This document shows positions 13,679 through 35,639 of a stretch of DNA of 64,000 bases, piece after piece. A model generated the notes under the pieces. It worked only from the letters and a program-made list of their open reading frames with translations. It searched no databases and was not told where the DNA came from. Source of the DNA: Elusimicrobiota bacterium (GTDB taxonomy: Bacteria; Elusimicrobiota; Elusimicrobia; UBA1565); contig JBDRPD010000083.1 in the NCBI GenBank assembly GCA_043827405.1, forward strand, positions 141,166-205,165. The letters are read 5' to 3'. A program made the translations under genes and the position numbers. Each line of letters starts with the position of its first letter. Position 1 is the stretch's first letter.

Positions 13679-13998
13679 TGGCTAATACCGCACCGCAATC
13701 GTCGTCTTTTTCACGTCCCGGCGGAAAGTCCAGCGGCGGACCCCGCCGGGCGCCGGCTCCCGGGGGACGTCCCCCCCGTCGCGGCTTTACACCGCGCCGC
13801 AAGGTCTGCCGTTTTTGCGCGGACAAAGTGGGCAATGTGGACTTTAAGCAGGTCAACGTGCTTAAAACATTCACTACCGATCGCGGCAAGATTCTTTCCA
13901 GCCGCATTACGGGCAACTGCGCGAGCCACCAGCGTCAGCTGACGCGCGCAATCAAGCGCTGCCGCTATCTGGCGCTGCTGCCGTTCGCTTCTACTTGA
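13678..13998 (+). CDS. rpsR: 30S ribosomal protein S18
   Basis: [60 protein letters not shown]. Confidence 0.93.
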
Positions 13999-14017
13999 GC
14001 TAAGAGAGTAATTCGCC

Positions 14018-14464
14018 ATGAAGGTCATACTAAAATCTGATGTCGAAAAGTTGGGCCGCGCCGGGGACATTAAGAATGTCCGGCTCGGTTTTGCCCGCAA
14101 CTATCTCCTCGTTCGCGGCCTCGCGATGGAGGCCACTCCGGTCGCCGTCCGCGAGTACGAGAAGAGCCGGGAGCGGCGGGAAAAGGCCCGCACGCAGACG
14201 CTGGAGTCGGCCAAGGCGACCTGTGAGAAGTTGGCCGCCGTCAAGCTCACATTCGACCGCAAGGTCGCCGAGGGAGGCAGGCTCTTCGGCTCCGTCGGCA
14301 AGACCGACATCGTGAAGGGCCTGAAATCTTCCGGCTACACCGTTGAGAAGGGGGACATCCTCCTGGATGCGGCGATCAAAGAGCTCGGCGAGCTAGAGGT
14401 TGAAGTCCGTCTCGCGCCCGAAGCCAGCGCGAAGATCAAAGTCGCGGTTGTAGCGCGCACCTAA
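14018..14464 (+). CDS. rplI: 50S ribosomal protein L9
   Basis: MKVILKSDVEKLGRAGDIKNVRLGFARNYLL... with canonical L9 N- and C-domains. Confidence 0.93.
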   Translation: MKVILKSDVEKLGRAGDIKNVRLGFARNYLLVRGLAMEATPVAVREYEKSRERREKARTQTLESAKATCEKLAAVKLTFDRKVAEGGRLFGSVGKTDIVKGLKSSGYTVEKGDILLDAAIKELGELEVEVRLAPEASAKIKVAVVART

Positions 14465-14496
14465 GCTGTTAAGGGCTTCCCGCCCGGGATCGCCGT

Positions 14497-15906
14497 ATGC
14501 CGACCGATACGCTGCAAGTACCGCCGCAGGCCATTGATGCCGAAAAAGCCGTTCTCGGCTCGATGCTCATCGAAGGCGAGGCGGTCGAAAAGTCTATCGA
14601 GCTCCTCGAAGAGAAGCAGTTCTACAAGGATTCCCACCGCAAGGTCTTTCACGCCGCCGTCAACCTGTTCGAGCAGGGGCGGGCGGTCGATATCGTTACC
14701 GTCGGCGAAGAGCTTAAAAAGCTGAAGTGGATCGGTGAAATCGGCGGCACAACCTATCTTTCCGAGCTCGTTGCGCATGTCGCGACCGCGGCGCACGTCG
14801 AGCATTATGCCCGCATCGTGCGCGATAAGGCCGTCCTGCGCGAGTTGATCCGGGTCTGCACCGGCATCGTCGGCGAGTGCTACGGCGAGATCAAGAAGCC
14901 GGGCGACCTGCTCGACGACGTGCAGGGTCGCGTGCTGGCGGTGGCCCAGAAGCAGGCCACCACCTCGTTCGCGGATATCAAGACTCTCTCGCACGAGGCC
15001 ATCAAGGATATCGAGCGCCAGCATCAGAACAAGAATGCGGTCACCGGCGTGTCTACCGGCCTGGCCGAGTTTGACAAGATCACCGCCGGATTTCAGAAGG
15101 GCGACCTGATTCTGATCGCCGCCCGCCCGAGCCAGGGAAAGACCGCTTTGGCCCTCAATATCGCCGGGCAGGCGGTCCTGCGCAAGGACGGTCCGACGCC
15201 CACCGCCGTATTCTCCCTCGAGATGTCCAAGCATGCGATCATGACGCGCTTTATTTCGACGCAGGCGGGCGTCGACCTGCACAAGGTCCGCACTGGTTTT
15301 TTCCCGCGCAATCGTTGGACGGATTTGACCAATGCCGCGGCGCGCTTCTCGGAAGCGCCGCTCTACATCGACGACACGTCGGTCCTGTCCGTGCTCGAGC
15401 TGCGCTCGCGGGCGCGCCGGCTGGCGTCCGAGCTGCAGTCGCAGGGCAGGGAGCTGGGGCTGATTGTGATCGACTACCTGCAGCTGATGCGGGGTTCCAG
15501 CCGCCGCAGCGAAAGCCGGCAGCAGGAAGTGTCCGATATCTCCCGCGGCCTCAAGGGGCTGGCCCGCGACCTGAACATCCCCGTGGTCGCGCTGTCGCAG
15601 CTTTCCCGGCGCACCGAGGAGAAAGGGCGCAGCGACGCCCGCCCGCAGCTGTCGGACCTGCGGGACTCCGGGGCGTTGGAACAGGACGCCGATCTTGTGG
15701 CATTCATCTACCGCGAAGGCTACTACAAGCCGCAGGACCCGGATCCCGAGCTGCAGCGCAAGGCTGAGATTATCGTCGCCAAGCAGCGCAACGGCCCCAC
15801 CGGCATTATCCACGCCGTATTCGATCGGAACATCACGCGCTTCAGTGATGTGGCCTCCGTTGCCGAACCTGAAGGCGAGGAAGAGGTCCAGGTCGTATTT
15901 TCGTGA
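14497..15906 (+). CDS. dnaB: Replicative DNA helicase DnaB
   Basis: PPQAIDAEKAVLGSMLIEGE N-terminal domain. Walker A GARPSQGKTALALN, Walker B IVIDYLQLM and RecA-like C-terminal domain. 469 aa, no intein. Confidence 0.95.
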   Translation: MPTDTLQVPPQAIDAEKAVLGSMLIEGEAVEKSIELLEEKQFYKDSHRKVFHAAVNLFEQGRAVDIVTVGEELKKLKWIGEIGGTTYLSELVAHVATAAHVEHYARIVRDKAVLRELIRVCTGIVGECYGEIKKPGDLLDDVQGRVLAVAQKQATTSFADIKTLSHEAIKDIERQHQNKNAVTGVSTGLAEFDKITAGFQKGDLILIAARPSQGKTALALNIAGQAVLRKDGPTPTAVFSLEMSKHAIMTRFISTQAGVDLHKVRTGFFPRNRWTDLTNAAARFSEAPLYIDDTSVLSVLELRSRARRLASELQSQGRELGLIVIDYLQLMRGSSRRSESRQQEVSDISRGLKGLARDLNIPVVALSQLSRRTEEKGRSDARPQLSDLRDSGALEQDADLVAFIYREGYYKPQDPDPELQRKAEIIVAKQRNGPTGIIHAVFDRNITRFSDVASVAEPEGEEEVQVVFS

Positions 15907-22473: not shown

Positions 22474-23472
22474 ATGATTACATGGCTGTATCGAGTAATG
22501 GTTTTGGTCGGCTGTCCCGCTCTCGTCTACTTTCAGATCGCCAAAGACCCGCGGGCGGTGCTTATCGGGCTCGGCGTCGGCGTCGTCCTCGTGGTGTTTG
22601 AGCTGCTGCTTGAGAAGATCAGTCTTATTACCTTGGTTTCCGGCGTTCTCGGCGCGAGCGCGGGGCTCATTATGGCGAAGCTCGCCGACTATACGGCCTT
22701 CCAGGTCGGCGACGAGGCCTTTTATCATGCCTGGGGCAAGTATTCCGCGCTGCGCTACTTCGCCTTCGGCATCCTCGGCATGTTCGTGACCATCCGCAAG
22801 ATCCTGCCTGAGATCGATACCCTGGACAAGGATATTCTGGCGATTTCCAAGCGCCGGGGATCCAATATGAAGGTCCTCGATACCAGCGCCATTATCGACG
22901 GCCGGGTCGTGGATATCTGCGAGACCCATTTTATCGGCGGCTCGCTGATCGTTCCGCGCTTTGTCCTTAACGCGCTGCAGCACATGGCGGACTCCGGCGA
23001 CAGCATGAAGCGCGCGCGCGGCCGGCGCGGACTCGACATCCTGGCGCGCCTGCAGGAGAACCCGGAAATCCCGCTCAAGATCATCGACAAGGACGTCCCC
23101 GAGATCGAGGACACGGACGCCAAGGTCGTGCGGCTGGCCAAGCAGCTCGGCGGCAAGGTTTTTACGACGGACTTCAATCTCAATAAGATCGCGTCTCTGG
23201 AGGGCGTGCAGGTCCTCAACGTCAACGACCTGACCAACGCGCTCAAGCCGGTGGTGCTGCCGGGCGAGAAGATGTCGCTGTTTGTCATGAAAGAGGGCAA
23301 GGAGCGCAGCCAGGGGGTCGGCTATCTCGACGACGGAACCATGGTGGTCGTCGAAGACGGCAAGTCGTATATCGGCGAACGCATCGATCTTGTGGTTACT
23401 TCCATCCTGCAGACTTCGCAGGGCCGGATGATATTCGGCAAGTTCCAGGAGCCCGAACAGGAGCCGGCCTAG
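22474..23472 (+). CDS. PIN/TRAM-domain membrane protein (YacL family)
   Basis: Four N-terminal TM helices. PIN domain (VLDTSAIIDGRV...TTDFNLNK). C-terminal TRAM-like beta domain. Typical radA-neighbour position. Confidence 0.75.
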   Translation: MITWLYRVMVLVGCPALVYFQIAKDPRAVLIGLGVGVVLVVFELLLEKISLITLVSGVLGASAGLIMAKLADYTAFQVGDEAFYHAWGKYSALRYFAFGILGMFVTIRKILPEIDTLDKDILAISKRRGSNMKVLDTSAIIDGRVVDICETHFIGGSLIVPRFVLNALQHMADSGDSMKRARGRRGLDILARLQENPEIPLKIIDKDVPEIEDTDAKVVRLAKQLGGKVFTTDFNLNKIASLEGVQVLNVNDLTNALKPVVLPGEKMSLFVMKEGKERSQGVGYLDDGTMVVVEDGKSYIGERIDLVVTSILQTSQGRMIFGKFQEPEQEPA

Positions 23473-25541
23473 CGGTCTTCTTCTTCCGCCGGCAGGTCCG
23501 CCAGCGAGTCGGGGAGCTGCTCCAGCATCCGCAGGAAGTCCTTGACGTCGGGCATCCGCGTCCGGTGGTCGAGGTCGAGCGCGCGCTCAAGCAGCACGGT
23601 CAGGCGCGGGTCCGGCTCGCGTCCGCCGATATGCGGGAGTTCGCCGGTCAGCATCTCGTAGCAGCATAAGCCCAGCGAATAGATGTCCGAGATCGGCGTC
23701 GTCTCTCCGCGCTTAGCCTCGGGCGCCGCGTAGCGTTCGGCGCCTTCCCCGGTGGTGCGCGCCAGCACGAAATCCGAGACCTTGATATAGCCCTTATTGG
23801 TCACGATGATGCGCTCGGGGCTCAAGCCCCCGTGCGCTATGCCGTGATGGTGCGCATGCTCCAGGGCGCGGCAGACGGGGATCAGGATGTCGCGCACCTG
23901 GCCGACCGGGAATTCGCCGACCTCTTCCAGGATGCTGTGAACGCTCTTGCCCGGGGTGTAGCCGTAGACGATATAGAGTCCGGAGGCGATATCGAGAATC
24001 TCGTAGAGGTCGACGATATTGGGATGGCGCAGCTTGGCCGCCGCGCGCGCCTCGTCGAGGCGGCGGGCGCGCTCTTCGGCGGGCTGGGCCTTGCTGCCGG
24101 CGTAGAGCCGCTTGATGAGGGCGGCGCGGCCCAGCGTCTGGTCCTGCGCCTTCCATATTTCGACGGTTCCGTCGTAGCCCATGAAGCGGATTAGATCGTA
24201 CTTCTCGGCGATCGTCATATTGCGCCGCAGCTTCAGCGGCGGCAGCGGGGTGCGTGAGATTATTGTTGTTTTCGTTTCTGTCTTCTGCTTCGGGGCGACG
24301 TTTTCCGTCCAGGAGCGGAGGCGCTTGGCGACGGTTCCGAAGGCGTCCAGCTTCGTCTGCTTCGGGTCTTTACGGCGGCGCGTCAGCATCACGATCGCCG
24401 CCATGAGAGCGACTCCGAGCAGCGCCCCTAGTATCATGAAAAGCGCGTTGGTGCCCGAGCCGCCCTGCGCTGTCGCCGCCGCCGGCGCCTCCTCGTCGCG
24501 CAGCAGCTTCCAGCTGCTGCCTTCGGCATCGAACAGGTCGCGGCTGTCGGCGTATTTTAGGTAGCGCAAAAAGCGAGCCGGGTCCAGCTTGGCGGCGATG
24601 CGCAGGTTCTGCATCCGCAGCTCTTTGTCTCCGCTCTGCTCATGCGCCAGCGCCAGCAGGAAGAAGGCGTCCGCGTTATGCGGTGCCAACGCGGTCGCAT
24701 AAGTTGCGCTTTCCACCGCTTCGGCGAAGCGTTTCTGCTCCAGCAGGCTTTGCGTCAGGATGATGACCGCTTTGATGTCGCCGGTGCCGCCGACCATGGC
24801 GGAGCGCGCCGCGGCCTCGGCCTCGGGGAGGCGGTTGCCGCGCAGCAGCTTCTCCGCCTGACGCAGCGGGGCGCCGCGCACGGCGTTGGTCGCCGCAGCG
24901 CGGGGCAAATCCTTTTCTGTCGCCGGGCGGGGCGGGGGTTCGGCGAATTTCTTAAACGCCGGCCAATCCGACACGGAGGAGGTCGCCGGTATGCTCGCCG
25001 GCGATGCGTCCCCGGCGCTTTTCGGGCTCTTGCGCGCGGGTTCGCGCCGCGTCGCGCGCGCGCCCGCGTCCTGATTATTATCCTGGTCGCCGCCGGATTT
25101 TCTGAACTTCCAGTGATCCCGAGTGCTTATGTCGGGCCGCGGGTCGCGCTTGAGGCTCTGCGCCGGGGGCTTGACGTCGAGGTTGTTGTAGCCCGCGGGG
25201 CGGGTATAGGATACGTCGCCCGCGGGCTTCTGCTCTACGATCGGCTTTTGCGCGTTGAGGTTCTGCAGCATGAGGTCGATCTGTTCGCGCTGTTCGGGGG
25301 GGAGAGATTCATTGGCGGAGATCTTCTTCAGGGTATCGATCTGCCGCATCAGCAGTACCGCGTCGTCCATCTGCTTTTGGCCGTCCTGCATGGAATATTC
25401 GTAGTCCTTGTCCTTGCGCTTGCCGGATTTCTGCTTATCGCCGGACGCTTTCTGCGGCGGCGGGTCGGCGTTCTGCGGCGCGGCGGCGATCAGCAGCGAC
25501 GCGGCGAGAAGGCCGGCGGAGCAGCGGAGGAAGCTCCTCAT
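23469..25541 (-). CDS. Signal peptide + TPR repeats + TM helix + C-terminal Ser/Thr-kinase-like domain with a degenerate catalytic loop (predicted pseudokinase)
   Basis: Kinase subdomains are recognisable (AALIK; E in alpha-C; DFV for DFG; AAPE; DIYSLG). The HRDLKPEN motif is replaced by IAHGGLSPER, so the catalytic Asp, Lys and Asn are lost. TPR-like helices in the N-terminal periplasmic half. TM ALFMILGALLGVALMAAIVML. Confidence 0.75.
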   Translation of the reverse strand: MRSFLRCSAGLLAASLLIAAAPQNADPPPQKASGDKQKSGKRKDKDYEYSMQDGQKQMDDAVLLMRQIDTLKKISANESLPPEQREQIDLMLQNLNAQKPIVEQKPAGDVSYTRPAGYNNLDVKPPAQSLKRDPRPDISTRDHWKFRKSGGDQDNNQDAGARATRREPARKSPKSAGDASPASIPATSSVSDWPAFKKFAEPPPRPATEKDLPRAAATNAVRGAPLRQAEKLLRGNRLPEAEAAARSAMVGGTGDIKAVIILTQSLLEQKRFAEAVESATYATALAPHNADAFFLLALAHEQSGDKELRMQNLRIAAKLDPARFLRYLKYADSRDLFDAEGSSWKLLRDEEAPAAATAQGGSGTNALFMILGALLGVALMAAIVMLTRRRKDPKQTKLDAFGTVAKRLRSWTENVAPKQKTETKTTIISRTPLPPLKLRRNMTIAEKYDLIRFMGYDGTVEIWKAQDQTLGRAALIKRLYAGSKAQPAEERARRLDEARAAAKLRHPNIVDLYEILDIASGLYIVYGYTPGKSVHSILEEVGEFPVGQVRDILIPVCRALEHAHHHGIAHGGLSPERIIVTNKGYIKVSDFVLARTTGEGAERYAAPEAKRGETTPISDIYSLGLCCYEMLTGELPHIGGREPDPRLTVLLERALDLDHRTRMPDVKDFLRMLEQLPDSLADLPAEEEDR

Positions 25542-26938
25542 TTCTTTTTGTGGTAAAAGTCCTTTCCGGGCTGGATCTTAAGCATCATGCCCGGGCGCAG
25601 GAGGCGCGGGTTATGGATATTGTTCTGCTGCATGATATTTTTGACCGTGGTCCGGTAGCTGCGGGCGATTTTTCCGAGGTAGTCTCCGCGGCGGACCTTG
25701 TAGCGGACGAGCTCCGGCCCGGGGTTCCAATCCTTCACTGCGGCAAGTTTTTTCAGGAACTCCTCCTTGACGCCCTGCGGGATGCGCAGCGGAAAGCCGG
25801 GGCGGTTGCGGGGCGTGCACCAGGCGCGGATATGCGGATTGAGCCGCTGGATCACTTCCTTGGTTGTCCCGGCGCACTTGGCCGCGATGCCGAGATCGAG
25901 GTCGCGGTCGAGCTCCACGATGTCGTAGGGTTCGGGTTCCTCGTAGTTGGGCTTGATGCCGTAGTTTTCCGGAGCTTCGCCGATGAGCACGCAGGCCATG
26001 AATTTCGGCACATAGTTGTGCGTCTCCTGCGGCAGGACCTTGCGGTCCGCCAGCTTGCCGAAGTCGGCCGAGTTGGAAAACTTAAGATCGCGGCCGATGC
26101 CGTTGAGCCCCCGGTTGTAGGCGGCCAGCGCCAGGTGCCAGTCCTTGAACCACTGGTGCAGGTCGCTCAGATGACGGATCGCGGCCTTGGTCGCCTTCTC
26201 CGGGTCGAACCGTTCGTCGACCCAGTACGAAACCTCCAGGCCGTAGGCGCGCGCGGTGAAGGGCATGAACTGCCATAAGCCCGCGGCCCCGGAGCGGGAG
26301 ACCGCGTTGCGCTTGTATTCGCTCTCGGTCATGACGAGGTAGAAGAGCTCGCGCGGCAGGCCCGCTTGGCGCAGCTCGGACTCGATGAAAGCGCGGTAGC
26401 GTCCGGAGCGTTCCAGCGCTTCACGGACGGAATCGGGCCGCTTTTCAGTGTAGAGCTGGATAAACTTCTTGGTGATCTCGTTTTCCGGATCGATCTCGAT
26501 GGTATGCTGCTGGGAGGAAATGGGAGCGGCCGGCGCGGGCGGGGTCTCCTCGAGCACTTCAGCGGAAACCTGCAGGTCGGAGGGGTACTCGGTCTGTGTT
26601 TCGCCCGCCTCCCAGGTCCGGACCTTCTCGAGCATGCTCAGAAAATCGGCCTTAAGCTCGATCGTCAGCTGGTCCTCCTCCAGCGAGGAGGTCAGCAGGG
26701 CAAAGGCTTTCTTGACGGCCGCCCGCGCCTGGCGGACCTTGCCTTCCTGAAAGAGCTTGATCCCCTGTTCGTATTGGCTCTCCGCCACCCGCAGCTGTTC
26801 GAGGAGCAGCGCGTCCGGATCGGCGTTCTCTTCCTGTCGGTCGGAGGCGTAGACGGGCGCCTCGGGCGGCGAGGTGTCGGGCGGCAATGCCCGCGCCGCG
26901 GGAACGAGCAGCAGCAGCAGCGCGGCGAACGGTTTCAC
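25538..26938 (-). CDS. MltD-like membrane-bound lytic murein transglycosylase (SLT domain + C-terminal LysM)
   Basis: SLT motif ESEYKRNAVSRSGAAGLWQFMPFTA. C-terminal LysM YKVRRGDYLGKIARSYRTTVKNIMQQN. Confidence 0.85.
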   Translation of the reverse strand: MKPFAALLLLLVPAARALPPDTSPPEAPVYASDRQEENADPDALLLEQLRVAESQYEQGIKLFQEGKVRQARAAVKKAFALLTSSLEEDQLTIELKADFLSMLEKVRTWEAGETQTEYPSDLQVSAEVLEETPPAPAAPISSQQHTIEIDPENEITKKFIQLYTEKRPDSVREALERSGRYRAFIESELRQAGLPRELFYLVMTESEYKRNAVSRSGAAGLWQFMPFTARAYGLEVSYWVDERFDPEKATKAAIRHLSDLHQWFKDWHLALAAYNRGLNGIGRDLKFSNSADFGKLADRKVLPQETHNYVPKFMACVLIGEAPENYGIKPNYEEPEPYDIVELDRDLDLGIAAKCAGTTKEVIQRLNPHIRAWCTPRNRPGFPLRIPQGVKEEFLKKLAAVKDWNPGPELVRYKVRRGDYLGKIARSYRTTVKNIMQQNNIHNPRLLRPGMMLKIQPGKDFYHKKK

Positions 26939-28078
26939 CTAGGCCAGCTTCTTGCCGCAGCCGCCGCAGAACTTCACGGTCGGTCCCGCTTGCGCGCCGC
27001 ACTTCGGGCAGGCGATCGAGCCGAGTCCCTTGCCGCAGTTCTGGCAGAACTTGGCGCCGGCGGCGACGTCGGCCTTGCAGCCGGGGCATTTGGCTGTCGG
27101 CGCGACGACCGGCTTGCCGCATTCGGGGCAGAATTTCGCGGTGGCCGGCACCTGGGCGTTGCACTGGTCGTTGGTGCAGGAAGCCGTCTGCTGCGGCTGC
27201 GTCGAGGCGGCCGAGCCCATGACGCCCGCCATCATCCCGCCCATGCCGGCGCCGGCGCCCAGGCCCATGCCCAGGCCCATGCCGCCGCCCATCATGCCGC
27301 CGCCCTCGTTTTTGGCCGCGCCCTCCATGGTGTCGAAGGTGCGCTTCATGCGGTAGTTCTGGCCGCCGAGGATGTCGATTTCGGCCCGCTCGGAAAGGGC
27401 TTTCTTCAGGCGCTTGACGGTATCGTCGTCGTCCGGGACGTTGACCGACTGCAGCATGAAGTTGACCAGCTGGATGCCGAAGTTCGCGAAATCCTTGCCG
27501 ATCTTCTTATGCAGATCTTCGGAGAGGTCCTCGAGGTAAGCGCTGATTTCGAGCAGGTTGATCTTCTTGCGGATGATCGTCTCCGCGATGTAGTCCTTGG
27601 CCTTGGTCAGGATGATGCCGCGGAAGTAGTCGGTCAGGGCGTTGACCGTGAACTCGTTCTGCGTACCCGCCAGCTGGACCACGAACTTGCGCGCGTCCGT
27701 GACGCGCACGCCGAACTGCCCGAAAGCGCGTATCGGCAGGAAGATGTTGTACTTTGGGTCCAGGATCGGGATCGGGGATTTTGTACCCCACTTCACATCG
27801 AGCTTGGTGGCCTTGTTGATGAAGTATATCTCGGCCGCGAACGGAGTCTCGCCGCCGAACGGGGCCTTGATCAGGCGCCGGAGGAGCGGAATGTTCAGGG
27901 TGCGCAGAGTATGCGTCCCGGGGCCGAGCAGATCAAGCGCCTGGCCGCCCTTGAAGAACAGGGCCTCCTGGGATTGGTTGACGATGACCTGCGTGCCCCA
28001 GGTCAGGTCGTCCGGAGGATGCCGCCAAACCAAGATGTCCGCCGGGCCGTCAAATTTTACTCTGTCGATTATCGCCAT
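26939..28078 (-). CDS. SPFH/band-7 superfamily protein of the COG4260 (virion-core-like) type with four C-terminal zinc-ribbon motifs
   Basis: N-terminal MAIIDRVKFDG...WGTQVIVNQSQEALFFKGG pattern typical of COG4260 SPFH proteins. C-terminal CxxC pairs (CTNDQC...CPECG, CPGCK...CQNCG, CPKCG...CGGCG). GGAGGG RBS before the ATG at 28078. Confidence 0.75.
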   Translation of the reverse strand: MAIIDRVKFDGPADILVWRHPPDDLTWGTQVIVNQSQEALFFKGGQALDLLGPGTHTLRTLNIPLLRRLIKAPFGGETPFAAEIYFINKATKLDVKWGTKSPIPILDPKYNIFLPIRAFGQFGVRVTDARKFVVQLAGTQNEFTVNALTDYFRGIILTKAKDYIAETIIRKKINLLEISAYLEDLSEDLHKKIGKDFANFGIQLVNFMLQSVNVPDDDDTVKRLKKALSERAEIDILGGQNYRMKRTFDTMEGAAKNEGGGMMGGGMGLGMGLGAGAGMGGMMAGVMGSAASTQPQQTASCTNDQCNAQVPATAKFCPECGKPVVAPTAKCPGCKADVAAGAKFCQNCGKGLGSIACPKCGAQAGPTVKFCGGCGKKLA

Positions 28079-28139
28079 ATTCCCTCCGCAGAAAAGCAAA
28101 GTTAGCTTAAGACTCCGTCCGACGGTTGTCAAGCCCTCA

Positions 28140-29597
28140 TTATTTCGCGGGCCGGACGATGGGCGGGTCGCCGGCCTCTATGATCTCGACGGTCGCGCCC
28201 TTCTCGATCGCGCCGCTGTCGGCGAGCGCCTCGACAATCTGGGTGCCGAACTGCACCCGGCCTTCGGGTTTGAGCGGGCCCAGAGCGAGACCACGGCGCC
28301 CGACGGCCAGCTCGCCCTCCTCCGGAGTGTCGAGCGGCGCGGTGCTCCCCGCGTCGGTGTCGAGCGGGCCGCGATTGAACATCGGCAGGCGGGGGATCAT
28401 GAACAGCAGCGATATGATGCCCGCGACCCCGCCGGCGCCCGCGGCGGCCAGGACCCAGAGAACTTCGCGCAGGCGGTCCCACTCCCAAGGAGCGTGCGGC
28501 ACGACAAAAGGGACGATCATGAGATAGAATCCGATCATCAGGCACAGGAAGCCCCCGATGCCTGCGAGCCCGAAGCCCGGCACCACGAAGATCTCGAGCG
28601 CGATCAGAAACAGTCCGGCCAGGACCAGCAGCAGATCGAACCAGCCCGCCATGTCCGCCAGGTAATGGCCCCAGAAGACCACGATGAAGCAGGCGATGCC
28701 GGCGGCGCCCATCCAGCCGAAGCCGGGCATATGCATCTCGCCGGAGATCAGCATGAAGCCGAGAAATACCAGCAGACTCGTCGCGGCGCTGCCGGTGATG
28801 ATATCAATGAACTTTTCCAGCCCGGTCTTGCGGGCATCGATCAGCGTCGGGTCCGGGATGTTTTCCCGGCGCAGCGCATACGTGATCGAGTCGGCCGGCT
28901 CGGCGAGCCCGTAGCGGATCGCCCGGCGGGCGCTGAGGTTCAGGAGCTTCCCCTTGGCGATGACCAGCTCGGGCTCGCCGCGGATTCGCCCTTCCTTCTT
29001 CAGGCGTTCCAGCTCCGGCGCGGTGACGAAGTGCGTTTCGCCGCCGGCGGTGACGCGATGAACTTCCAGGTCCTTGTCGACCATGGCGGCGGCGAGCGCC
29101 GCCGGGTAATTGTTGCGCTCGGCAAGGGCGCGGAACTTCGCCCGCAGGGCGGAGATGTGCTTCTCTCCCGCCGCCTCCGTTTTGCCGCCGCCGCTCATCA
29201 CGGGAGCGGCGGAGCCGATCGAGGCGCTTGGGGCCATGTAGATTTTGCCGCAGGCGAGCGAGATCAGCGCCCCGGCCGACCAGGCCTTGTCCTCTACCCA
29301 GGCGAATACCGGGATATTGGGCTCCTGCGCCGCGCGGGCGATGTCGAGCGCCGCGTCCACGCGCCCGCCGAAAGTGTCGATGCGCAGGACAACGGCGCGC
29401 GCGTCTTCCCTGCCGGCGAGCGAGCGCCGGACATAGGAGGCGAGGCCATGGGTAATCTCGCCGTCGATATGGATGACCAGAACCTTGCTGCCGGCGGTCG
29501 TGGGAGCGGGTCCGCGGCTGGCGGCGAAGCCGACGGCCGCATAGAGCAGGCCGGCGGCCAATGCGGCCAGCGATCTTGTAAGCGGTTGCGCGTTCAT
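28140..29597 (-). CDS. NfeD-family membrane-bound ClpP-class serine protease with C-terminal OB-fold
   Basis: Signal or TM start MNAQPLTRSLAALAAGLLYAAV. ClpP-like region VLVIHIDGEITHG...DTFGGRVDAALDI...KAWSAGALISLA. Several TM helices, then a C-terminal beta domain. Classic partner of SPFH proteins. ATG overlaps the upstream stop (ATGA). Confidence 0.8.
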   Translation of the reverse strand: MNAQPLTRSLAALAAGLLYAAVGFAASRGPAPTTAGSKVLVIHIDGEITHGLASYVRRSLAGREDARAVVLRIDTFGGRVDAALDIARAAQEPNIPVFAWVEDKAWSAGALISLACGKIYMAPSASIGSAAPVMSGGGKTEAAGEKHISALRAKFRALAERNNYPAALAAAMVDKDLEVHRVTAGGETHFVTAPELERLKKEGRIRGEPELVIAKGKLLNLSARRAIRYGLAEPADSITYALRRENIPDPTLIDARKTGLEKFIDIITGSAATSLLVFLGFMLISGEMHMPGFGWMGAAGIACFIVVFWGHYLADMAGWFDLLLVLAGLFLIALEIFVVPGFGLAGIGGFLCLMIGFYLMIVPFVVPHAPWEWDRLREVLWVLAAAGAGGVAGIISLLFMIPRLPMFNRGPLDTDAGSTAPLDTPEEGELAVGRRGLALGPLKPEGRVQFGTQIVEALADSGAIEKGATVEIIEAGDPPIVRPAK

Positions 29598-31486
29598 GCC
29601 TGAAGGTCCTGCTGCGCCTGTTGGTAGAGGAGCTTGCGTTCCGCCGCGATCATGCCGCGGATGTCCTGCGCGTTCATCTTGAGCTGCCGTCCGAAGGCCA
29701 GCAGGGTGTTCATCTCCGGCCGGGATATCTCGCCGTCGGCGAGGCTCATTTGGATGACGCCGCGGAGGAATATCCGAGCCTCCTCGGGCGTCTTCGGCGC
29801 CGGCACTTCCAGGTGTCCGCTGCGGGCCGCGCTGAGCAGCCCGTCGAGCTTGACCCGCGGTATCGTATGCTTCCTGGCATAGGCCTGCGCGAACGCCAGC
29901 TCCCGCTGGTCGATGCGGCCGTCGAGGATCATCGCCCCGACGAGCACGGCCAGCGCCTGTATGGGCGGCATGGCGCCCGACCAGCCGGCGTCCGCGCCGC
30001 GCGCCGCAACGCTCTCGGCGGCCAGCAGCGGAGTCGGCTGGCGCCACTGGCCGTGGGGCATGATGCCGGTCAGGACCCAGCGGCGGCTGCCGTCGTTGGC
30101 CGGCGAGCCGCAGAACTCGCAGGCGGCCTGCCGGCGCTCCGCGGGCGGCGCGCCGCAGCTCGCGCACAGCAGCGAGCGCAGCCCGGAGCCGGCGTCGGTC
30201 TTGGCGGCGGCCTGGCGGCTAAGGATGAAAACGTGGTGGTTGAGCACCGAGCCCTGAGCGGCGGCTTCGCCGTTATGGACCGCGAATTTCTCGCCGGACC
30301 ATTTGACGAGGACGTGGGCCTTGTCGTCGGGCCGGCCCGCCTCTATCGCGAGGATATCGACGGCGCCCACGGCGGCGCCGCGGTACAGGGCGCGGGTGCG
30401 CGACTGGCTTTCCCGGTGCGCGGCGACCAGCGCCTCCGCGGCTACCGGGACCAGCGAGGAGGCCTCCGGCTCCCAGTGCGCCATCTGCCAGCGCCAGAAG
30501 ACGGCCGAGGCGCGGTCCTCCAGGAACTGAACGTTGAGCGCGGGATCGCGCTGCTTGATCTCCACCAGCCCCGGAATCTGCGCCTCCGAGGTGCGGATGC
30601 GCCATTCGCAGGCTTGGGTGATTTCGGCGAGCACCCAGTCATACTCGCCGGAGCTGACCCAGGAGCCGCAGGCCGCGCATTTGGCGGCGTCGGCGATATC
30701 CAGCGGCGCCCCGCAGTTCGGGCAGAACCCTTCAAGCAGTCCGGGTTTTTTCAGGGTCTGCGCGCCCGGGCGCCGCAGGAAGGACCAGACCTCGATAAAC
30801 TCTTCTTCTTTCCCGGAGCGGTTCTTGACGACGCTGTCGTCGTCCAGCCGCACGTCCTGGTCCACCGCCGAGGCGCGAACGCTTACATGGAGCGTGTCGA
30901 AGTGCGCGTCCGATTCGACATGGACCACGTCGGCTTTGAGAACCCGGACCTCGTGCATGCGGTTGCGGATGCCCATCGCCCGCTGCATGCGGATATAAAT
31001 GGCGAAGCGCTCGTTGATCCCGTCGGAGATGAAGGCGCGCGCCGGGCCCATGTCTTGGTTCGACCAGGCCTCCTGGATGCGCAGGAAGGCCTTCTGCACC
31101 CGGTCGAGAAAGGCGGGCGTGCTGAAGCCCGGGTCGCGCTGATGGATCTTCGCGATGCCGGCCATGATGGCATGGGACTGGGCGCGCGCCGCGCCCTGCA
31201 CGATGGTCCGCTGCGTGCGGCCCTCCCCGTTGATGGCGCCGAATACGCGCAGCATGACGAAGACGCCGATGACGGCGAGCCAGATGACGTTTTCCGTCCG
31301 GCTCATGCGCCGGCTGGAACGGTAGCCGCCGTAGCTGCCGCCGCTGAAACTTCCGCCGCTGAAACCACCGCCGCTGAAGCCTCCGCCGCCGCCCGAATAG
31401 CCGCCGCCGCCGCCGGCGCGGGCGAAGACGATCGGGGGCGCGAACAGGGCGAGCAGAAACAGGGCCAGCGCGAGGCGGCGGATCAC
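29594..31486 (-). CDS. Membrane protein with Gly-rich N-terminus, Tim44-like domain(s), two CxxC zinc ribbons and a C-terminal TerB-like domain
   Basis: Signal-anchor MIRRLALALFLLALFAPPIVFA, then GGGGGYSGGGGGFSGG. Tim44-like region FLDRVQKAFLRIQEAWSNQD...HFDTLHVSV. CPNCG...CAACG and CASCG...CEFCG zinc ribbons. C-terminal TerB-like helices (ILDGRIDQRELAFAQAY...SLADGEISRPEMNTLLAFGRQL). Confidence 0.7.
   Translation of the reverse strand: MIRRLALALFLLALFAPPIVFARAGGGGGYSGGGGGFSGGGFSGGSFSGGSYGGYRSSRRMSRTENVIWLAVIGVFVMLRVFGAINGEGRTQRTIVQGAARAQSHAIMAGIAKIHQRDPGFSTPAFLDRVQKAFLRIQEAWSNQDMGPARAFISDGINERFAIYIRMQRAMGIRNRMHEVRVLKADVVHVESDAHFDTLHVSVRASAVDQDVRLDDDSVVKNRSGKEEEFIEVWSFLRRPGAQTLKKPGLLEGFCPNCGAPLDIADAAKCAACGSWVSSGEYDWVLAEITQACEWRIRTSEAQIPGLVEIKQRDPALNVQFLEDRASAVFWRWQMAHWEPEASSLVPVAAEALVAAHRESQSRTRALYRGAAVGAVDILAIEAGRPDDKAHVLVKWSGEKFAVHNGEAAAQGSVLNHHVFILSRQAAAKTDAGSGLRSLLCASCGAPPAERRQAACEFCGSPANDGSRRWVLTGIMPHGQWRQPTPLLAAESVAARGADAGWSGAMPPIQALAVLVGAMILDGRIDQRELAFAQAYARKHTIPRVKLDGLLSAARSGHLEVPAPKTPEEARIFLRGVIQMSLADGEISRPEMNTLLAFGRQLKMNAQDIRGMIAAERKLLYQQAQQDLQA
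31306..31417 (-). repeat. GGC-rich simple repeat encoding the Gly/Ser-rich segment (GGGGGYSGGGGGFSGGGFSGGSFSGGSYGGY)
   Basis: Runs of gccgcc / ggcggc trinucleotide repeats visible in the DNA. Confidence 0.7.
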
Positions 31487-32748
31487 CGCGGGTTCCCGCC
31501 TTGCTGTTGCTGCTGCTGCCCCATGACCTGATTGAGCATTTCCATGCTTTGACCGAGCATTTCGTTGACGCCGCGCGTGGCTTCGATCATCTCCTTAACG
31601 GTGCCGGCGCGGTCCGCCTTGGGGATATTGGGCAGGGTCTCGACCAATGACTGGCGGATGGGCCCGCTCATTTTCGGCCACTCCTTCACCAGCAGGCTGC
31701 TGGTGCGGCTGTCGAGGAGCAGCAGGGTTTCGTTGGGAGGATGCTGCATTTTCTGGTAGCGCTGCATCTCCTGGATGACGCCCATGGGATTGGTCTGCGC
31801 CTGGTGCATCGCCTGCTGGAAGTCGTTGTTGGCCTGCTCGTCGCCCAGCGCCTGCATCATGGCCGAGGCCGCCTGGATGGCCTGCTGGGGGTTCATCGGC
31901 TGCTGCTGTTGCTGCGTTCCGATGACGGCGGGCGGCCCGCCGAAGGAGGAGCTCTGCTGTGTTGAGATCTGTCCCTGGAAGTTGCCGAGCGACGACTTGA
32001 GGCGCTGGGCGGCTATGGCCGCCGAGATGCTGAGCAGCAGCCAGAAGACCGTTAAGGCGCCGAAGACCAGCCAGGCCTTCTTCTTGTCGACCCGGTGCAG
32101 GCCCGCCGCCGCATGAACGGCAAGGTAGAGCCCGCATAGCTGGGGGATGATCGCTCCGGCATAGGGGATGAGGCCCAGAAGAGAACTAATAGGCATCAGC
32201 GCCGCCATGGCGGCGAAGGCGCCGAAGCTGCCGTTGTAGGAGACGCCGCCGCCGAGGACTTTGCACAGGACGTGGAAGATCGCGGCGCCGATGAAGCTCA
32301 TGATGATCGCCACGATCGGCAGCATGAACAGCCCGCCGGTGGCGGCAGCGATCGTGAAGGGGACCGACTGGGTCTTGGCGTAAACCGTGAAGGCGGACAG
32401 CGGGGCGCTGATCAGCGCCCACAGGATGATGACGACCAGCGGCGGGCCGAAGCCGCCGTTGGGGTTGATGCGGGAAAAGAAAAGCGTGGGCTGCTGGGCC
32501 ATGAATACGGCATTGGCGATCAGCTTGCCGGGCTTGAAATCGATAAACCCGCCGACATCGGCTTCCCGGCCGGGGCCGATGGGCGCCGCGGCGGGCGGCG
32601 GCGGGACGTTTTGTGCCATGACGGCCCGGACCGCTTCCTCGATAGCTTCGGGGGGAAAGCCGTTGCCGGCCAGCGCCGTCTTGAGGCTTTCGATGGGGTA
32701 GCTGCCCATGTTCTGGCGCAGATAGTCGACGATTCTCTGGTCGGGCAT
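31483..32748 (-). CDS. Yip1-domain multi-pass membrane protein with a Gln-rich C-terminal extension
   Basis: Five-TM Yip1-like core (LVVIILWALISAPLSAF...LPIVAIIMSFIGAAIFHVL...). Tail rich in Q (TQQQQQPMNPQQ...QQQQQQGGNPR). The ATG at 32748 is preferred over the TTG at 32784. 4-nt overlap with the downstream gene. Confidence 0.65.
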   Translation of the reverse strand: MPDQRIVDYLRQNMGSYPIESLKTALAGNGFPPEAIEEAVRAVMAQNVPPPPAAAPIGPGREADVGGFIDFKPGKLIANAVFMAQQPTLFFSRINPNGGFGPPLVVIILWALISAPLSAFTVYAKTQSVPFTIAAATGGLFMLPIVAIIMSFIGAAIFHVLCKVLGGGVSYNGSFGAFAAMAALMPISSLLGLIPYAGAIIPQLCGLYLAVHAAAGLHRVDKKKAWLVFGALTVFWLLLSISAAIAAQRLKSSLGNFQGQISTQQSSSFGGPPAVIGTQQQQQPMNPQQAIQAASAMMQALGDEQANNDFQQAMHQAQTNPMGVIQEMQRYQKMQHPPNETLLLLDSRTSSLLVKEWPKMSGPIRQSLVETLPNIPKADRAGTVKEMIEATRGVNEMLGQSMEMLNQVMGQQQQQQGGNPR

Positions 32749-32815
32749 AATAGGCAATATACCGCGCTTTGACGACGGAAGCAAGACCCGGCGGGCCCCC
32801 TAGCGTATTTCCTAT

Positions 32816-34753
32816 ATGCAAGCTATGCTCTTCTCAGCGGTGAAAAAGAAGGGCAATAAAAAGTCGGAAAAATTCGGCACGGTTCTGGGCTGCGCTCCCG
32901 GAAACGTGCCGGTTTACTCGTCGGACTACGGTACGGTCGACAAAGAGCGGCTTCCCACGCGGCATACCTTCCGGAGCTATGTCGATGGGATATTCATGGG
33001 GTACAAATGGCAGTGCGTGGAGTTCGCCCGACGCTGGCTGTACCTGAACCGCGGGTTTGTTTTCGACGATATCGCGATGGCATACGATATATTCCGTCTC
33101 AAATCCGTTCGGGTGGTTAAAGACGGCGCCGTTCTGCCGCTCCACTCGTTCGCCAACGGATCGGCACGGCTTCCCGAACCGGGCTGCCTGCTCATATGGA
33201 ACGAGGGCGGGGAATTCGCGGATGCGGGGCATGTGGCTGTCGTTACGGAAGTTTTTCCCGATCGAATCCGTTTCGTGGAGCAGAATGTCGAGCATGAGTT
33301 ATGGCCGGCAGGACAAAATTATTCCCGGGAGCTGCGCGCAAAAGAAGATGAGAACGGCGGCTACTGGATAGAGTGCTTTTACAGCGGAGCGACCATCCTG
33401 GGCTGGGTCATTCAGACCGGCGATCCGCAGGGGGCGGAAATCTTCCCGGACCTCGATATAGAGCTGCTGAATCTTCAGGCGCGCGAGGTTAAGAACCGCG
33501 GCCAGGCCAACCGATCCTGGCTCAATGTCGCCAATCCCGATGAGGCCGCCTATGTGGCTGTCCAGGGTCACAAGGTGACCGACAGGAAGGACAAGGAGTA
33601 TAAGTATTTTTGTATTTCCGAATCGGCGTACGGCGAGCTCAAGCGGGCGACCAACCAGCTGCATTCCATGTTCATGCACGCCACCGACTATGTGCTGCAG
33701 AATGAAGCGGTGCTGGAGAGGTTTTGCATTCCCCGGCCTCTCTGGTCCAGGCTTCGGCGGTCATGGGACAATCGCCGCAATCAGGCGATAACCGGGAGGC
33801 TTGATTTTTCGGTCTCGGAGAACGGGATAAAAATCTATGAATACAACGCTGATTCCGCCGCCTGCTATATGGAATGCGGAGTCATCCAGACAAAATGGTC
33901 CAAGCACTTCGGCTGCAAGGAAGGATGGTGCGCGGGAGAGAAGCTGCACCGCGAGCTGGTCGACGCCTGGAAGGACAGCGAAGTGGACGGCATCCTGCAT
34001 ATCATGCGGGATAATGATCGCGAGGAGGCTTATCATGCCCTCTTCATGAAAGCGGCGATCGAGCAGGCCGGAATCGAGTGCCGGGTAATCACCGGATGCA
34101 GGGGGCTGTCCTGGGACGCGGACGGACGGGTCATCGATTCGGCGGGCGTTCCCATTCGCTGGGTTTGGAAAACGTGGGCATGGGAAACGGCGCTGGATCA
34201 AATCCGCGCCGAATGCGACGAAGATGATACGCGGGAGCCGCAATCCCTGCTGCGGGGTCCCGCGAGGGGGGCGCCCCGCTTGGTCGACGTGCTGCTGGGA
34301 GAGGATGTTCTGGTTTTTGAGCCCCTCTGGACGCTGATCCCGAGCAACAAGGCGATTCTTCCCGTGCTATGGACCCTGTATCCCGGCCACCCGTACCTGC
34401 TTGATTCACAGTTTGAGCTGACTGCGGAGTTGCGGGGAAAGGGGTTCGTGGCAAAGCCCATCGTGGGGCGCTGCGGGGCCAATATAAGTATTTTCAGCAA
34501 AGACGACTCTCTGGTCTCCCGGACCGGCGGTCAGTTCGAAAAGCGTGAGCAGATCTATCAGGAGTTCTTTCCTCTGCCGAAAATCGACGGCGACAATGTG
34601 CAGGTCGGGACGTTTCCGGTGTCCGGAGTGTTTGCCGGGGCCAACGTCAGAATGGACCCATCTCTCATCCTGGTGTCCGACAGCGACATGCCCGCATTAA
34701 GAGTGGTCAACGACGAGGCGCTGCTGGACGGCGGGCGGCTTAGGGGGTCTTAG
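32816..34753 (+). CDS. gsp: Bifunctional glutathionylspermidine amidase/synthetase
   Basis: N-terminal CHAP amidase (FGTVLGCAPGNVPVYSSDY...KWQCVEFARRW...GHVAVV). C-terminal GSP-synthetase ATP-grasp domain. Length and motif order match E. coli Gss. Confidence 0.88.
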   Translation: MQAMLFSAVKKKGNKKSEKFGTVLGCAPGNVPVYSSDYGTVDKERLPTRHTFRSYVDGIFMGYKWQCVEFARRWLYLNRGFVFDDIAMAYDIFRLKSVRVVKDGAVLPLHSFANGSARLPEPGCLLIWNEGGEFADAGHVAVVTEVFPDRIRFVEQNVEHELWPAGQNYSRELRAKEDENGGYWIECFYSGATILGWVIQTGDPQGAEIFPDLDIELLNLQAREVKNRGQANRSWLNVANPDEAAYVAVQGHKVTDRKDKEYKYFCISESAYGELKRATNQLHSMFMHATDYVLQNEAVLERFCIPRPLWSRLRRSWDNRRNQAITGRLDFSVSENGIKIYEYNADSAACYMECGVIQTKWSKHFGCKEGWCAGEKLHRELVDAWKDSEVDGILHIMRDNDREEAYHALFMKAAIEQAGIECRVITGCRGLSWDADGRVIDSAGVPIRWVWKTWAWETALDQIRAECDEDDTREPQSLLRGPARGAPRLVDVLLGEDVLVFEPLWTLIPSNKAILPVLWTLYPGHPYLLDSQFELTAELRGKGFVAKPIVGRCGANISIFSKDDSLVSRTGGQFEKREQIYQEFFPLPKIDGDNVQVGTFPVSGVFAGANVRMDPSLILVSDSDMPALRVVNDEALLDGGRLRGS

Positions 34754-35639
34754 CCGTCATCGCCAGCTTGAATATCTCGGTCACGTCGCTGGAGAAGGCG
34801 AATTCGAACCGCGGATCCAGCACATAGGCCTTGATTTTCAGCGTCGTGCGCAGCTGCTTTTCCGACGGCGCATCCTGGAACAGCACGACGATCGGCTTGG
34901 CGAGATTTATGTAGCGGGAGGTGACAGCCGCCTCCCATGCGGTGCGTTTCGCCGCGAGCAGGTCGGTTTCCGGCGGCAGCGTGATTTCCGTGACGACCTG
35001 GCAGGTCAGTGCTCCGGAATTGGCGTTCGCTATGATGCGGTTGACGATCTCCGCGTTGGGGACCGTAACCAGATTGTCGTCCGATGTGACGAGCCGCACG
35101 GTGCGCAGCCCAATGCCGACGACCTCGCCGTAGTGTTCTCCGATGCGGATCTTGTCGCCGACCTGGAATGGACGATCCAGGATAATGACCAGCCCGCCGA
35201 AGATATTCTTTAAGATGTCCTGGGAGGCAAAACCGATGGCGACTCCGGAAGCGGTTAGTACGGCGAAAAACGCGTCCCTGGTCGGAGAGAATACCCAGCG
35301 GACGATGATATAGGCGGTGCCCGCCCATACCAGTACGCGGATGATCGGAATGCCCTTTTTGAGGAAGCGGTAGCGCGCGCTGCGTTCCCCGATAAGGTCG
35401 AGCAGGTAAGTGCTGGTTAAGATGGCCAGCCAGGCGAGTGCGAACAAGAGCGCCGCGATGAGGATCTTTAGGGAAAGCCTTGACGCGCCGCGGCGGACCT
35501 CGCCCAGTTTCTGCTGCCCCGTGACCGGCGTCGAAGCGGCCTCCGTCGTCGGCACGGAGACGGCGGCGTGAGATGTCGCGACGGCCGCGAAAGCGGTGGG
35601 GACCAGAAGGACGATAATGAGCGGCAGCGCTTTATGCAT
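34740..35639 (-). CDS. Small-conductance mechanosensitive channel (MscS family)
   Basis: Signal or TM start MHKALPLIIVLLVPTAFA. MscS core (GFASQDILKNIFGGLVIILDRPFQVGDKIRIGEHYGEVVGIGLRTVRL). The 3' end is convergent with and overlaps gsp by 14 nt. Confidence 0.88.
   Translation of the reverse strand: MHKALPLIIVLLVPTAFAAVATSHAAVSVPTTEAASTPVTGQQKLGEVRRGASRLSLKILIAALLFALAWLAILTSTYLLDLIGERSARYRFLKKGIPIIRVLVWAGTAYIIVRWVFSPTRDAFFAVLTASGVAIGFASQDILKNIFGGLVIILDRPFQVGDKIRIGEHYGEVVGIGLRTVRLVTSDDNLVTVPNAEIVNRIIANANSGALTCQVVTEITLPPETDLLAAKRTAWEAAVTSRYINLAKPIVVLFQDAPSEKQLRTTLKIKAYVLDPRFEFAFSSDVTEIFKLAMTAKTP

Follow-up and report, generated by a model that had tools for sequence, protein, structure and literature searches.

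In a 64,000-nucleotide stretch of contig JBDRPD010000083.1 (the window), taken from a metagenome-assembled genome (MAG) of an uncultured Elusimicrobiota bacterium, six consecutive minus-strand open reading frames (ORFs) span positions 23469-32748. Two of them form a pair that recurs elsewhere: a gene for a membrane adaptor with duplicated Tim44-like/zinc-ribbon modules and a TerB-like domain, and a gene for a soluble SPFH protein of the YdjI type. The pairing of the two is conserved and appears to be previously undescribed; no description of Tim44 and TerB domains paired with Band_7_1 or COG4260 was found in the literature searched, with many subscription papers beyond the reach of that search. 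With slightly more confidence than doubt, we read the cluster as a chromosomal, vertically inherited system for membrane or envelope homeostasis, whose functional core is this two-gene module, the adaptor recruiting the SPFH scaffold to the membrane.

A preliminary description of the same DNA had proposed an envelope-stress or phage-defense-like microdomain machine made of all six proteins and knew of no described system of that kind. An envelope or membrane-homeostasis role is a sensible reading, and we likewise found no account of the pairing. However, the closest studied system, the Bacillus subtilis pspA-ydjGHI (SamGHI) locus, had been overlooked.

Domain architecture of the adaptor and SPFH proteins

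All six ORFs of the preliminary description were confirmed. At 100% identity, the adaptor, NfeD, and kinase proteins each match MAG proteins at NCBI from a 276-kb contig. Its domain calls held when the Pfam check was run, with Yip1, Tim44, NfeD, Band_7_1 plus four zinc ribbons, SLT, LysM, and Pkinase above their cutoffs and a weak match to TPR. The scan covered these six proteins and 30 further window proteins (36 in total; small ORFs only in part). The two core genes and the parts of the adaptor are as follows.

29594-31486, minus strand: bitopic membrane adaptor, 630 aa, GTG start (Pfam, AlphaFold2 [AF2], Foldseek)
30602-31189, minus strand: Tim44-like + zinc-ribbon module 1, adaptor residues 100-295 (Pfam, hhalign)
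30041-30601, minus strand: Tim44-like + zinc-ribbon module 2, adaptor residues 296-482 (hhalign, AF2)
29597-29974, minus strand: TerB-like all-helical domain, adaptor residues 505-630, with two DGxxxxxE motifs
26939-28078, minus strand: soluble YdjI/SamI-type SPFH protein, 379 aa (Pfam, BLASTP, hydropathy)

Along the adaptor, a first transmembrane (TM) segment or signal (residues 1-27) is followed by a disordered Gly-rich stretch, a second TM segment (64-88), the two modules, and the TerB-like domain. Each module consists of a Tim44-like NTF2 domain and a zinc ribbon, the alpha+beta domain being interrupted by a CPxCGAP...CxxC ribbon. The protein matched Pfam Tim44 (PF04280) at 78 bits against a cutoff of 29.6. 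Its AF2 model (pLDDT 81, pTM 0.78) had the C-terminal domain of human and yeast Tim44, together with mL45, as top Foldseek matches (against 2cw9, E = 6.6e-5 and a TM-score normalised by target of 0.66). The modules are internal duplicates of each other (hhalign probability 99.7%, E = 2.7e-27) and show a matching secondary-structure pattern in the model.

Tim44 and mL45 are membrane-binding NTF2-like modules that contact lipid. The adaptor resembles this family (PF04280; PDB 2cw9, 3qk9) in passing the Pfam model and in superposing on Tim44 C-terminal domains and mL45, but its domain is duplicated, a zinc ribbon is inserted in each copy, TerB is fused to it, and there is no link to protein import. 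The NCBIfam Tim44/TimA adaptor models were not passed (NF033779, 52.2 vs 80 bits; NF033778, 31.7 vs 200). At E<=1e-30 the adaptor family comprises 860 representative clusters, and at least 570 adaptor loci are present among GTDB species genomes.

The TerB assignment needed more care, as the domain scored 19 bits in the adaptor, under the Pfam cutoff of 24.4. It is nonetheless supported because PF05099 is precomputed in many full-length homologues, the family profile matches, across residues 514-618, the TerB structures 2ou3 (E = 0.0017) and 2h5n (E = 0.0026), and the protein has both DGxxxxxE motifs.

The SPFH protein consists of a Band_7_1 domain (18-218), a Gly/Met-rich low-complexity linker (about 258-292; GGMMGGGMGLGMG), and four C-terminal zinc ribbons (298-379). 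Band_7_1 (PF13421) scored 158.5 bits against a cutoff of 24, DZR scored 66 bits, and Zn_ribbon was also matched. There is no TM segment, as no 19-residue window reached a Kyte-Doolittle hydropathy of >= 1.6. A sequence search of the PDB with this protein returned no match.

Tandem DNA repeats lie within the coding sequence of both genes. One, at 27238-27291, encodes the Gly/Met-rich linker of the SPFH protein; another, at 31338-31389, encodes GGFSGG repeats in the disordered N-terminal stretch of the adaptor; and a third, at 30101-30182, falls within the adaptor's second Tim44-like module.

Relation to the SamGHI system of Bacillus subtilis

For comparison, a B. subtilis-type pspA-ydjGHI locus (L086) was retrieved from a metagenome by means of a primer sequence printed in PMC8581546. 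The window's SPFH protein is homologous to its YdjI (BLASTP E = 3e-20 over the full length, 23% identity, residues 13-325 vs 9-323), which itself scores 146.9 bits on the Band_7_1 model. In B. subtilis, YdjI/SamI is soluble and requires YdjG/YdjH for membrane localization, while it restrains the signaling of these two proteins; under alkali shock, the machinery of cell-wall synthesis is delocalized when ydjG or ydjH is lost (PMC8581546; PMC11237479; bioRxiv 10.64898/2026.02.06.704340).

The likeness extends beyond homology of the SPFH proteins, both of which carry PF13421, lack TM segments, and have a Gly/Met-rich linker and C-terminal zinc ribbon(s). In both loci, the product of the gene beside the SPFH gene is a membrane protein that combines zinc ribbons (two in YdjG) with an alpha+beta domain; the domain of YdjG is described as NTF2-like, and the C-terminal domain of Tim44 has an NTF2-type fold. 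A cell-wall link is also common to the two, as a phenotype in Bacillus and as an MltD gene here. The differences are equally clear. Neither PspA nor a TPM-domain YdjH is found in the window cluster. The domain order of the adaptor is reversed relative to YdjG, with the TM region N-terminal and the ribbons after the NTF2 domains, and its module is duplicated and fused to TerB. NfeD, Yip1, MltD, and a pseudokinase are added, and the SPFH protein has four ribbons, compared with the single zinc-ribbon region detected in YdjI. By analogy, the cluster is best read as a PspA-less, SamGHI-like system that would bring an SPFH scaffold to the membrane.

Genes adjoining Band_7_1 genes in Ralstonia (L095 5082-6530), Vibrio (L094 5063-6121), Butyrivibrio (L093 6960-8354), and B. 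subtilis (YdjG; L086 901-1926) each encode a CxxC...CxxC zinc ribbon and are otherwise not alignable to the adaptor. This recurrence is suggestive. The Ralstonia ydjI-like gene is also preceded by DUF350, and the Vibrio Band_7_1 gene lies near a TIR-domain gene.

Operons of PspA/Band-7 proteins have been reported with polyamine genes, DUF350, GspS-like ATP-grasp ligases, and channels (PMC11237479). The window shares with them a Band-7 protein in an envelope-stress-type neighborhood, with a GspS-type gene and MscS near the Yip1 end. However, there is no PspA or CesT/Tir, and the GspS/MscS block is not conserved with the cluster.

Conservation of the pair across phyla

We searched 84 loci (80 from genomes, the best-scoring ones among at least 570, and 4 metagenome contigs) for all six window proteins by tblastn, phmmer, and iterated hidden Markov models, and clustered the neighbors de novo. 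Band_7_1 was the only neighbor that recurred across phyla. It lay within 10 kb of the Tim44/TerB gene in 22 of the 84 loci, directly adjacent in most, and adjacency of the two genes, in one order or the other, extended to at least five phyla. No further partner shared across phyla emerged from de novo clustering; the remaining recurrent clusters were lineage-specific synteny or shadow ORFs.

Among the Elusimicrobiota species loci, 12 of 17 had Band_7_1. Of the exceptions, L010 and L012 lacked it despite room, and L001, L011, and L015 were too short downstream to tell. The SPFH gene was upstream of the adaptor gene in three loci of Victivallales/Lentisphaerae and in two MAGs, one of Thermodesulfobacteriota and one unclassified; in Ozemobacter Band_7_1 was 3 kb from the adaptor on the opposite strand. 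Outside Elusimicrobiota, the pair was flanked by unrelated housekeeping genes, for example, MutS, PrpD, and AP endonuclease.

A simpler form of the pair is present in the cultured Bacillota species Monoglobus pectinilyticus (NZ_OY725743.1; L092 4569-6821). Here, the gene for a one-module, 328-aa protein with a Tim44-like domain and a zinc ribbon (ZnR) lies upstream, at a distance of 16 nt, of a gene whose product is a YdjI-like SPFH protein carrying several zinc ribbons. The one-module protein matches module 1 of the adaptor at an hhalign probability of 99.8% (E = 6e-29).

In Fermentibacterota, the adaptor neighbors were PLD-like, TPR-HD, LarA-like, and histidine kinase genes. This suggests that PLD-like and TPR-HD proteins are alternative, lipid-related partners of the adaptor. 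The gene after a solo adaptor in this phylum was a small PLD-like (HKD) one at 8 loci (L017 11572-12099) and a TPR-HD one at 7 (L019 2910-4307).

Accessory genes and gene order in close relatives

The remaining four genes of the window cluster encode the following proteins.

31483-32748, minus strand: Yip1-family polytopic membrane protein, 421 aa (Pfam Yip1 40.3 vs 28.6 bits)
28140-29597, minus strand: long-form NfeD (NfeD1b), 485 aa, with N-terminal ClpP-like, membrane, and C-terminal OB (NfeD) domains
25538-26938, minus strand: MltD-like lytic transglycosylase, 466 aa, GTG start (signal peptide, SLT 98 bits, LysM 57 bits)
23469-25541, minus strand: receptor-like pseudokinase, 690 aa (Pkinase 95 bits, weak TPR_16/19)

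All three Pfam models for NfeD were passed (NfeD1b_N, 121.5 bits; NfeD_membrane, 82.1; NfeD, 33.3), and the candidate catalytic residues Ser107 (KAWSAGA) and Lys146/Lys154 were invariant in an alignment of 9 NfeD homologues. A 71% homologue occurs in the order Yip1-Tim44TerB-NfeD-TPR (L087/L088), where the contig ends. A 52% homologue occurs in the order S8 peptidase-Tim44TerB-NfeD-Band_7_1 (the contig of P0123), with the 4-nt overlap retained, and in L082 a fragment of NfeD is positioned between adaptor and SPFH. From these gene orders, NfeD is a lineage-specific insertion between the two core genes, seen in about four genomes. It looks secondarily recruited because most occurrences of the pair are without it and because a 46% homologue, P0126, stands in an ordinary NfeD-FloA pair.

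NfeD and SPFH proteins are otherwise well-known partners, with canonical operons in Pyrococcus (PH1510/PH1511), E. coli (YbbJ-QmcA), and B. subtilis (YqeZ-FloA and YuaF-FloT). As in these, a long-form NfeD gene lies directly upstream of the SPFH gene in the window; the candidate Ser/Lys residues of its product are conserved. The preliminary description had recognized a pair that is genuine in general, but the SPFH partner here is a soluble, YdjI-type Band_7_1 protein and not a membrane-anchored stomatin, FloA, or flotillin, and NfeD is inserted.

By hydropathy, the Yip1 protein has some 5 TM segments within residues 98-250; its C-terminal tail is Gln-rich. The MltD-like protein has one LysM and an SLT domain that keeps the ES(E/x)Y catalytic Glu motif; on the NCBIfam MltD model it scored 129 bits, under the cutoff. 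The pseudokinase is built of a signal peptide, an extracytoplasmic TPR region (about 230-330), one TM segment (361-389), and a cytoplasmic Hanks-type kinase fold. It had been called signaling-dead, and this is borne out by HGGLSPER in place of HRDLKPxN, by which the catalytic Asp and Asn are lost in the window, L081, and L084. Since the L081 and L084 orthologues share this loss, the protein is a conserved pseudokinase; that of L081 additionally lacks the VAIK Lys and the DFG Asp. These orthologues were identified through gene context only; with the pseudokinase as query, a homologue search found nothing beyond the query and two generic kinases, its word index being saturated by kinases.

Among the loci sampled, Yip1, MltD, and the pseudokinase were confined to one subclade, and all six genes together were found in no other genome sampled. 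The gene orders in relatives, with T for the Tim44/TerB adaptor, were as follows.

L081: Yip1-T-SPFH-MltD-kinase, with gaps of 56-88 nt and no overlaps
L084: the five genes of L081 in that order, interrupted by two TPR genes and by three genes on the opposite strand
L031: Yip1 at a distance of 4 kb, behind an S46 peptidase gene on the opposite strand, followed by T-TPR-SPFH-MltD; kinase absent
L082: Yip1 fragment-T-NfeD fragment-SPFH-MltD; no kinase
L001: Yip1-T-TPR
L083: T-TPR (inverted)-SPFH

In relatives, a seventh gene recurs after the Tim44/TerB gene or after NfeD and encodes a small TPR protein of about 250 aa (L084 9884-10660; L001 6611-7372; L002 1778-2548; L031 11788-12552; L083 10017-10775, minus strand; L087 4043-4753). 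It lies between adaptor and SPFH in L084 and L031 and after NfeD in L087/L088; a tblastn search (E <= 1e-3) gave no counterpart in the window.

We consider it unlikely that all six proteins form one envelope-stress microdomain machine encoded by a single translationally coupled operon. The order of five of the six genes is identical in L081 and, with insertions, the same in L084; Tim44TerB-SPFH-MltD is kept in L082 and L031, and the cell-wall phenotypes of ydjG and ydjH in B. subtilis (PMC8581546) fit a link to MltD. Against this, no other genome sampled has the full set, the kinase is missing from L031 and L082, Yip1 stands apart in L031 behind the peptidase gene, the cluster is split by three opposite-strand genes in L084, and the genes of L081 are spaced without overlaps. 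Order may also be merely inherited, given that synteny extends into the flanks of the subclade loci, with RadA and the TRAM-like gene on one side and cysS-SpoU-CDF-S8 peptidase on the other (in the window, an insertion of roughly 10 kb at 32.8-42.5 kb displaces the latter). Because these housekeeping flanks are conserved, the five-gene order of L081 and L084 is inseparable from inherited synteny. When gene-neighborhood conservation, a check proposed in the preliminary description, was assessed, the Tim44/TerB gene with Band_7_1 recurred across phyla, but the six genes were not a conserved unit, with opposite-strand genes inserted in relatives. The six-gene arrangement is a lineage-specific elaboration, not a new system.

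A second alternative is that this is simply an operon of a compact genome, in which Tim44TerB-NfeD-SPFH shares nothing but its transcript with a separate peptidoglycan pair (MltD and a pseudokinase regulator) and an unrelated Yip1. Accessory genes are indeed gained and lost independently, unrelated genes are tightly packed as a norm in the window, and wherever both MltD and the kinase occur, they sit side by side at the 3' end of the cluster. However, MltD follows SPFH in all five subclade genomes with enough sequence (the window, L031, L081, L082, and L084), and Yip1 is upstream of the adaptor in six of the subclade loci with sequence there (orthologues in L001, L031, L081, L084, and L087, and a fragment in L082). 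This linkage is weak evidence against separate functions because the genomes are related and syntenic; even so, we regard such a split as improbable.

Gene spacing and candidate promoters

The preliminary description had reported gaps of 0-7 nt or 4-nt overlaps throughout the block. This is true of four of the five junctions: Yip1/Tim44TerB (GTGA) and Tim44TerB/NfeD (ATGA) are 4-nt overlaps, SPFH/MltD is 0 nt, and MltD/kinase is an ATGA overlap. The NfeD/SPFH junction is instead a 61-nt gap. Within the block there is no opposite-strand gene. The spacers and bounding genes are listed below.

28079-28139, minus strand: NfeD-SPFH gap, with TTGACA (28132-28127), a 17-nt spacer, and TAAGCT (28109-28104)
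32749-32815, minus strand: divergent intergenic region 5' of Yip1, 67 bp, with promoter-like TTGCTT (32784-32779), a 17-nt spacer, and TATATT (32761-32756)
22474-23472, plus strand: convergent gene bounding the block, a 332-aa TRAM-like ORF
32816-34753, plus strand: divergent CHAP + GSP_synth gene bounding the block, glutathionylspermidine synthase/amidase-type

The four close junctions and the lack of interruption favor a six-protein unit, while the 61-nt gap with its promoter-like site speaks against it. The cluster's only strong ribosome-binding site, GGAGGG (28087-28082), lies in this gap, 3 nt ahead of the SPFH ATG. In the nearest relative (L087/L088), the TPR gene follows NfeD where the window has the gap, and the contig ends before any SPFH gene. 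The promoter-like site upstream of Yip1 is a consensus match only, and the promoter scan lists an overlapping weaker site. Because its -10 element ends 7 nt from the ATG and there is no Shine-Dalgarno sequence, the Yip1/operon mRNA may be leaderless. Scanning for promoters and terminators revealed no convincing minus-strand terminator inside the block, and sites were no more numerous than in shuffled controls. At the 3' end, the stop codons of the pseudokinase gene (minus) and the TRAM-like ORF (plus) overlap at 23469-23472 (CTAG), and therefore there is no space for an intrinsic terminator between these convergent genes.

Overlaps of 1-4 nt also join unrelated genes of the window, including dnaB/alr (15903-15906), PMT_2/cysS (42577-42580), cysS/SpoU (44022-44025), SpoU/CDF (44855), and folD/panE (10889-10892). 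Because the genome is generally compact and unrelated genes overlap in the same way, overlaps are a poor guide to shared function, which counts further against a six-protein machine. Spacing had been taken to imply co-transcription and translational coupling; it is compatible with co-transcription, and a single transcription unit for the six genes is plausible, but it is weak evidence for a common function.

Phage-defense and metal-stress readings

The phage-defense component of the preliminary description gained no support. An antiphage or abortive-infection system would here use TerB, a kinase-like sensor, and a cell-wall hydrolase. The Ter (terZABCDE) loci confer resistance to tellurite, phage, and colicin, while TerB-domain proteins also include DjlA and YebE/DUF533. 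What the adaptor shares with Ter loci is the TerB-like helical domain at its C terminus, including the two DGxxxxxE motifs, but nothing beyond this domain is common to them, and a tellurite or phage phenotype is not inferable from it. No Pfam match to TerA, TerC, TerD, TerE, or TerZ was found among the six cluster proteins and 30 flanking proteins scanned.

In PADLOC-DB 2.0, the pseudokinase matched only generic kinase-fold models (PD-T4-6, mad6, MkoA, and PglW), the SPFH protein had a marginal match to KwaB (E = 0.001), and nothing was found for the other four proteins. The matches to PD-T4-6 and MADS kinase models could be counted in favor of defense, as could the few Band_7_1 genes near a TIR-domain gene or near restriction-modification or toxin-antitoxin genes on plasmids. 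However, the kinase matches are generic, with the catalytic Asp lost, and apart from the marginal KwaB match the result was null for five of the six proteins. No adaptor relatives were found on viral contigs and no full-length adaptor copy on plasmids, and a search of phage records gave eight weak, unannotated matches with no defense or mobile-element signal. The neighbors are housekeeping genes, syntenic between genomes. Consequently, we consider a defense role very improbable.

A system for metal stress (tellurite or zinc) is, if anything, harder to credit. It could be suggested by the TerB-like domain, by six Cys4 ribbons over two proteins, and by a CDF transporter in the conserved flank, with ZIP and P-type metal transporters elsewhere in the window. 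The missing ter genes argue against this reading as well, zinc ribbons are also structural or interaction modules in YdjI and YdjG, and the transporters are 12-25 kb away with unrelated genes between.

A proposed role for the adaptor and its SPFH partner

We return to the membrane-homeostasis reading, in which the adaptor and SPFH genes are the core. A receptor role is proposed for the adaptor because the SPFH protein is homologous to YdjI and its partner is analogous to YdjG/YdjH. The first core gene would encode a bitopic inner-membrane protein whose predicted cytoplasmic part carries the two [Tim44-like NTF2 + zinc ribbon] modules and TerB, and the second a soluble YdjI/SamI-type SPFH protein with Band_7_1, the Gly/Met-rich linker, and four zinc ribbons. 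As YdjG/YdjH do for YdjI, the adaptor would draw the SPFH oligomer, which is otherwise soluble, to the membrane on its cytoplasmic side. Its Tim44-like domains may contact lipid in the manner of Tim44 and mL45, and the zinc ribbons would serve as interaction elements. NfeD, a ClpP-like serine protease of the membrane with an OB domain and the usual partner of SPFH proteins, probably docks on the SPFH assembly or trims it. Yip1, MltD, and the pseudokinase are subclade-specific additions that may couple the scaffold to peptidoglycan remodeling. MltD is periplasmic, and the receptor-like pseudokinase may tie the scaffold to that remodeling, which is the least supported step. Transcription of all six genes probably begins at a promoter ahead of Yip1, and a second start before SPFH is possible.

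Several observations weigh against this interpretation. The adaptor was solo, with no SPFH gene within 10 kb, in most loci sampled, including all Planctomycetota (about 17), all Fermentibacterota (about 24), P0018, and P0069. Because most sampled loci are of this kind, the adaptor also works without an adjacent SPFH gene. These loci are a best-scoring subset, and ORF calling in them was crude. In addition, we rejected the adaptor as a YdjG homologue, as its profile matches YdjG over one zinc ribbon only (hhalign 44%) and the resemblance is limited to the ZnR, an alpha/beta domain, and TM. Neither TPM (YdjH) nor PspA (PF04012, PspA_IM30) was detected among the 36 window proteins scanned, and PspA was not found within +/-8 kb in L081-L084. 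Lastly, cleavage of a cytoplasmic SPFH protein by NfeD is uncertain because it depends on which side of the membrane the protease domain faces. Given the solo loci on the one hand and the cross-phylum pairs on the other, the adaptor-SPFH link is real but facultative.

A broader proposal can be made tentatively, and we think it rather doubtful as a whole. The unit of Tim44-like NTF2 domain and CPxCGAP zinc ribbon might be a general, unrecognized membrane receptor for soluble YdjI-type SPFH proteins, serving PspA-independent surveillance of the membrane in Elusimicrobiota, the PVC group, Thermodesulfobacteriota, and Bacillota. TerB might supply a regulatory or metal-sensing input, and one Elusimicrobiota subclade might be wired through NfeD, the transglycosylase, and the pseudokinase to peptidoglycan remodeling.

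How soluble SPFH proteins arrive at the membrane, and what is regulated by them, is known from one organism only (B. subtilis SamGHI). If the proposal is true, a second, unrelated adaptor family with the same type of SPFH protein in several phyla would provide a comparative handle. It would also give a first functional context to an adaptor family that is recorded generically ("transporter" or "TIM44-like domain-containing protein"). The pair is a bacterial case of a Tim44-like lipid-binding fold genetically coupled to an SPFH scaffold, and Monoglobus pectinilyticus is a possible experimental model for it.

Other features of the window

Beyond the Yip1 end of the cluster, the GSP_synth gene diverges from Yip1 across the 67-bp spacer; next to it, within 32816-35702, comes a minus-strand gene for an MscS channel. 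Compared with L081 and L084, in which cysS-SpoU adjoin Yip1, the whole block at 32.8-42.5 kb that includes GspS/MscS is inserted. A 2169-aa ORF at 3489-9998 combines HEAT repeats with a C-terminal subtilase (Peptidase_S8) domain, and a second S8 peptidase is encoded at 47326-48603; S8 peptidases also occur near the cluster in L081, L084, and the contig of P0123. Whole-window Rfam and tRNA scans returned no features. A canonical rpsF-ssb-rpsR-rplI-dnaB block is located at 12852-15906 in a stretch of lower GC content, preceded by an excisionase-like HTH ORF (12336-12701, minus strand).

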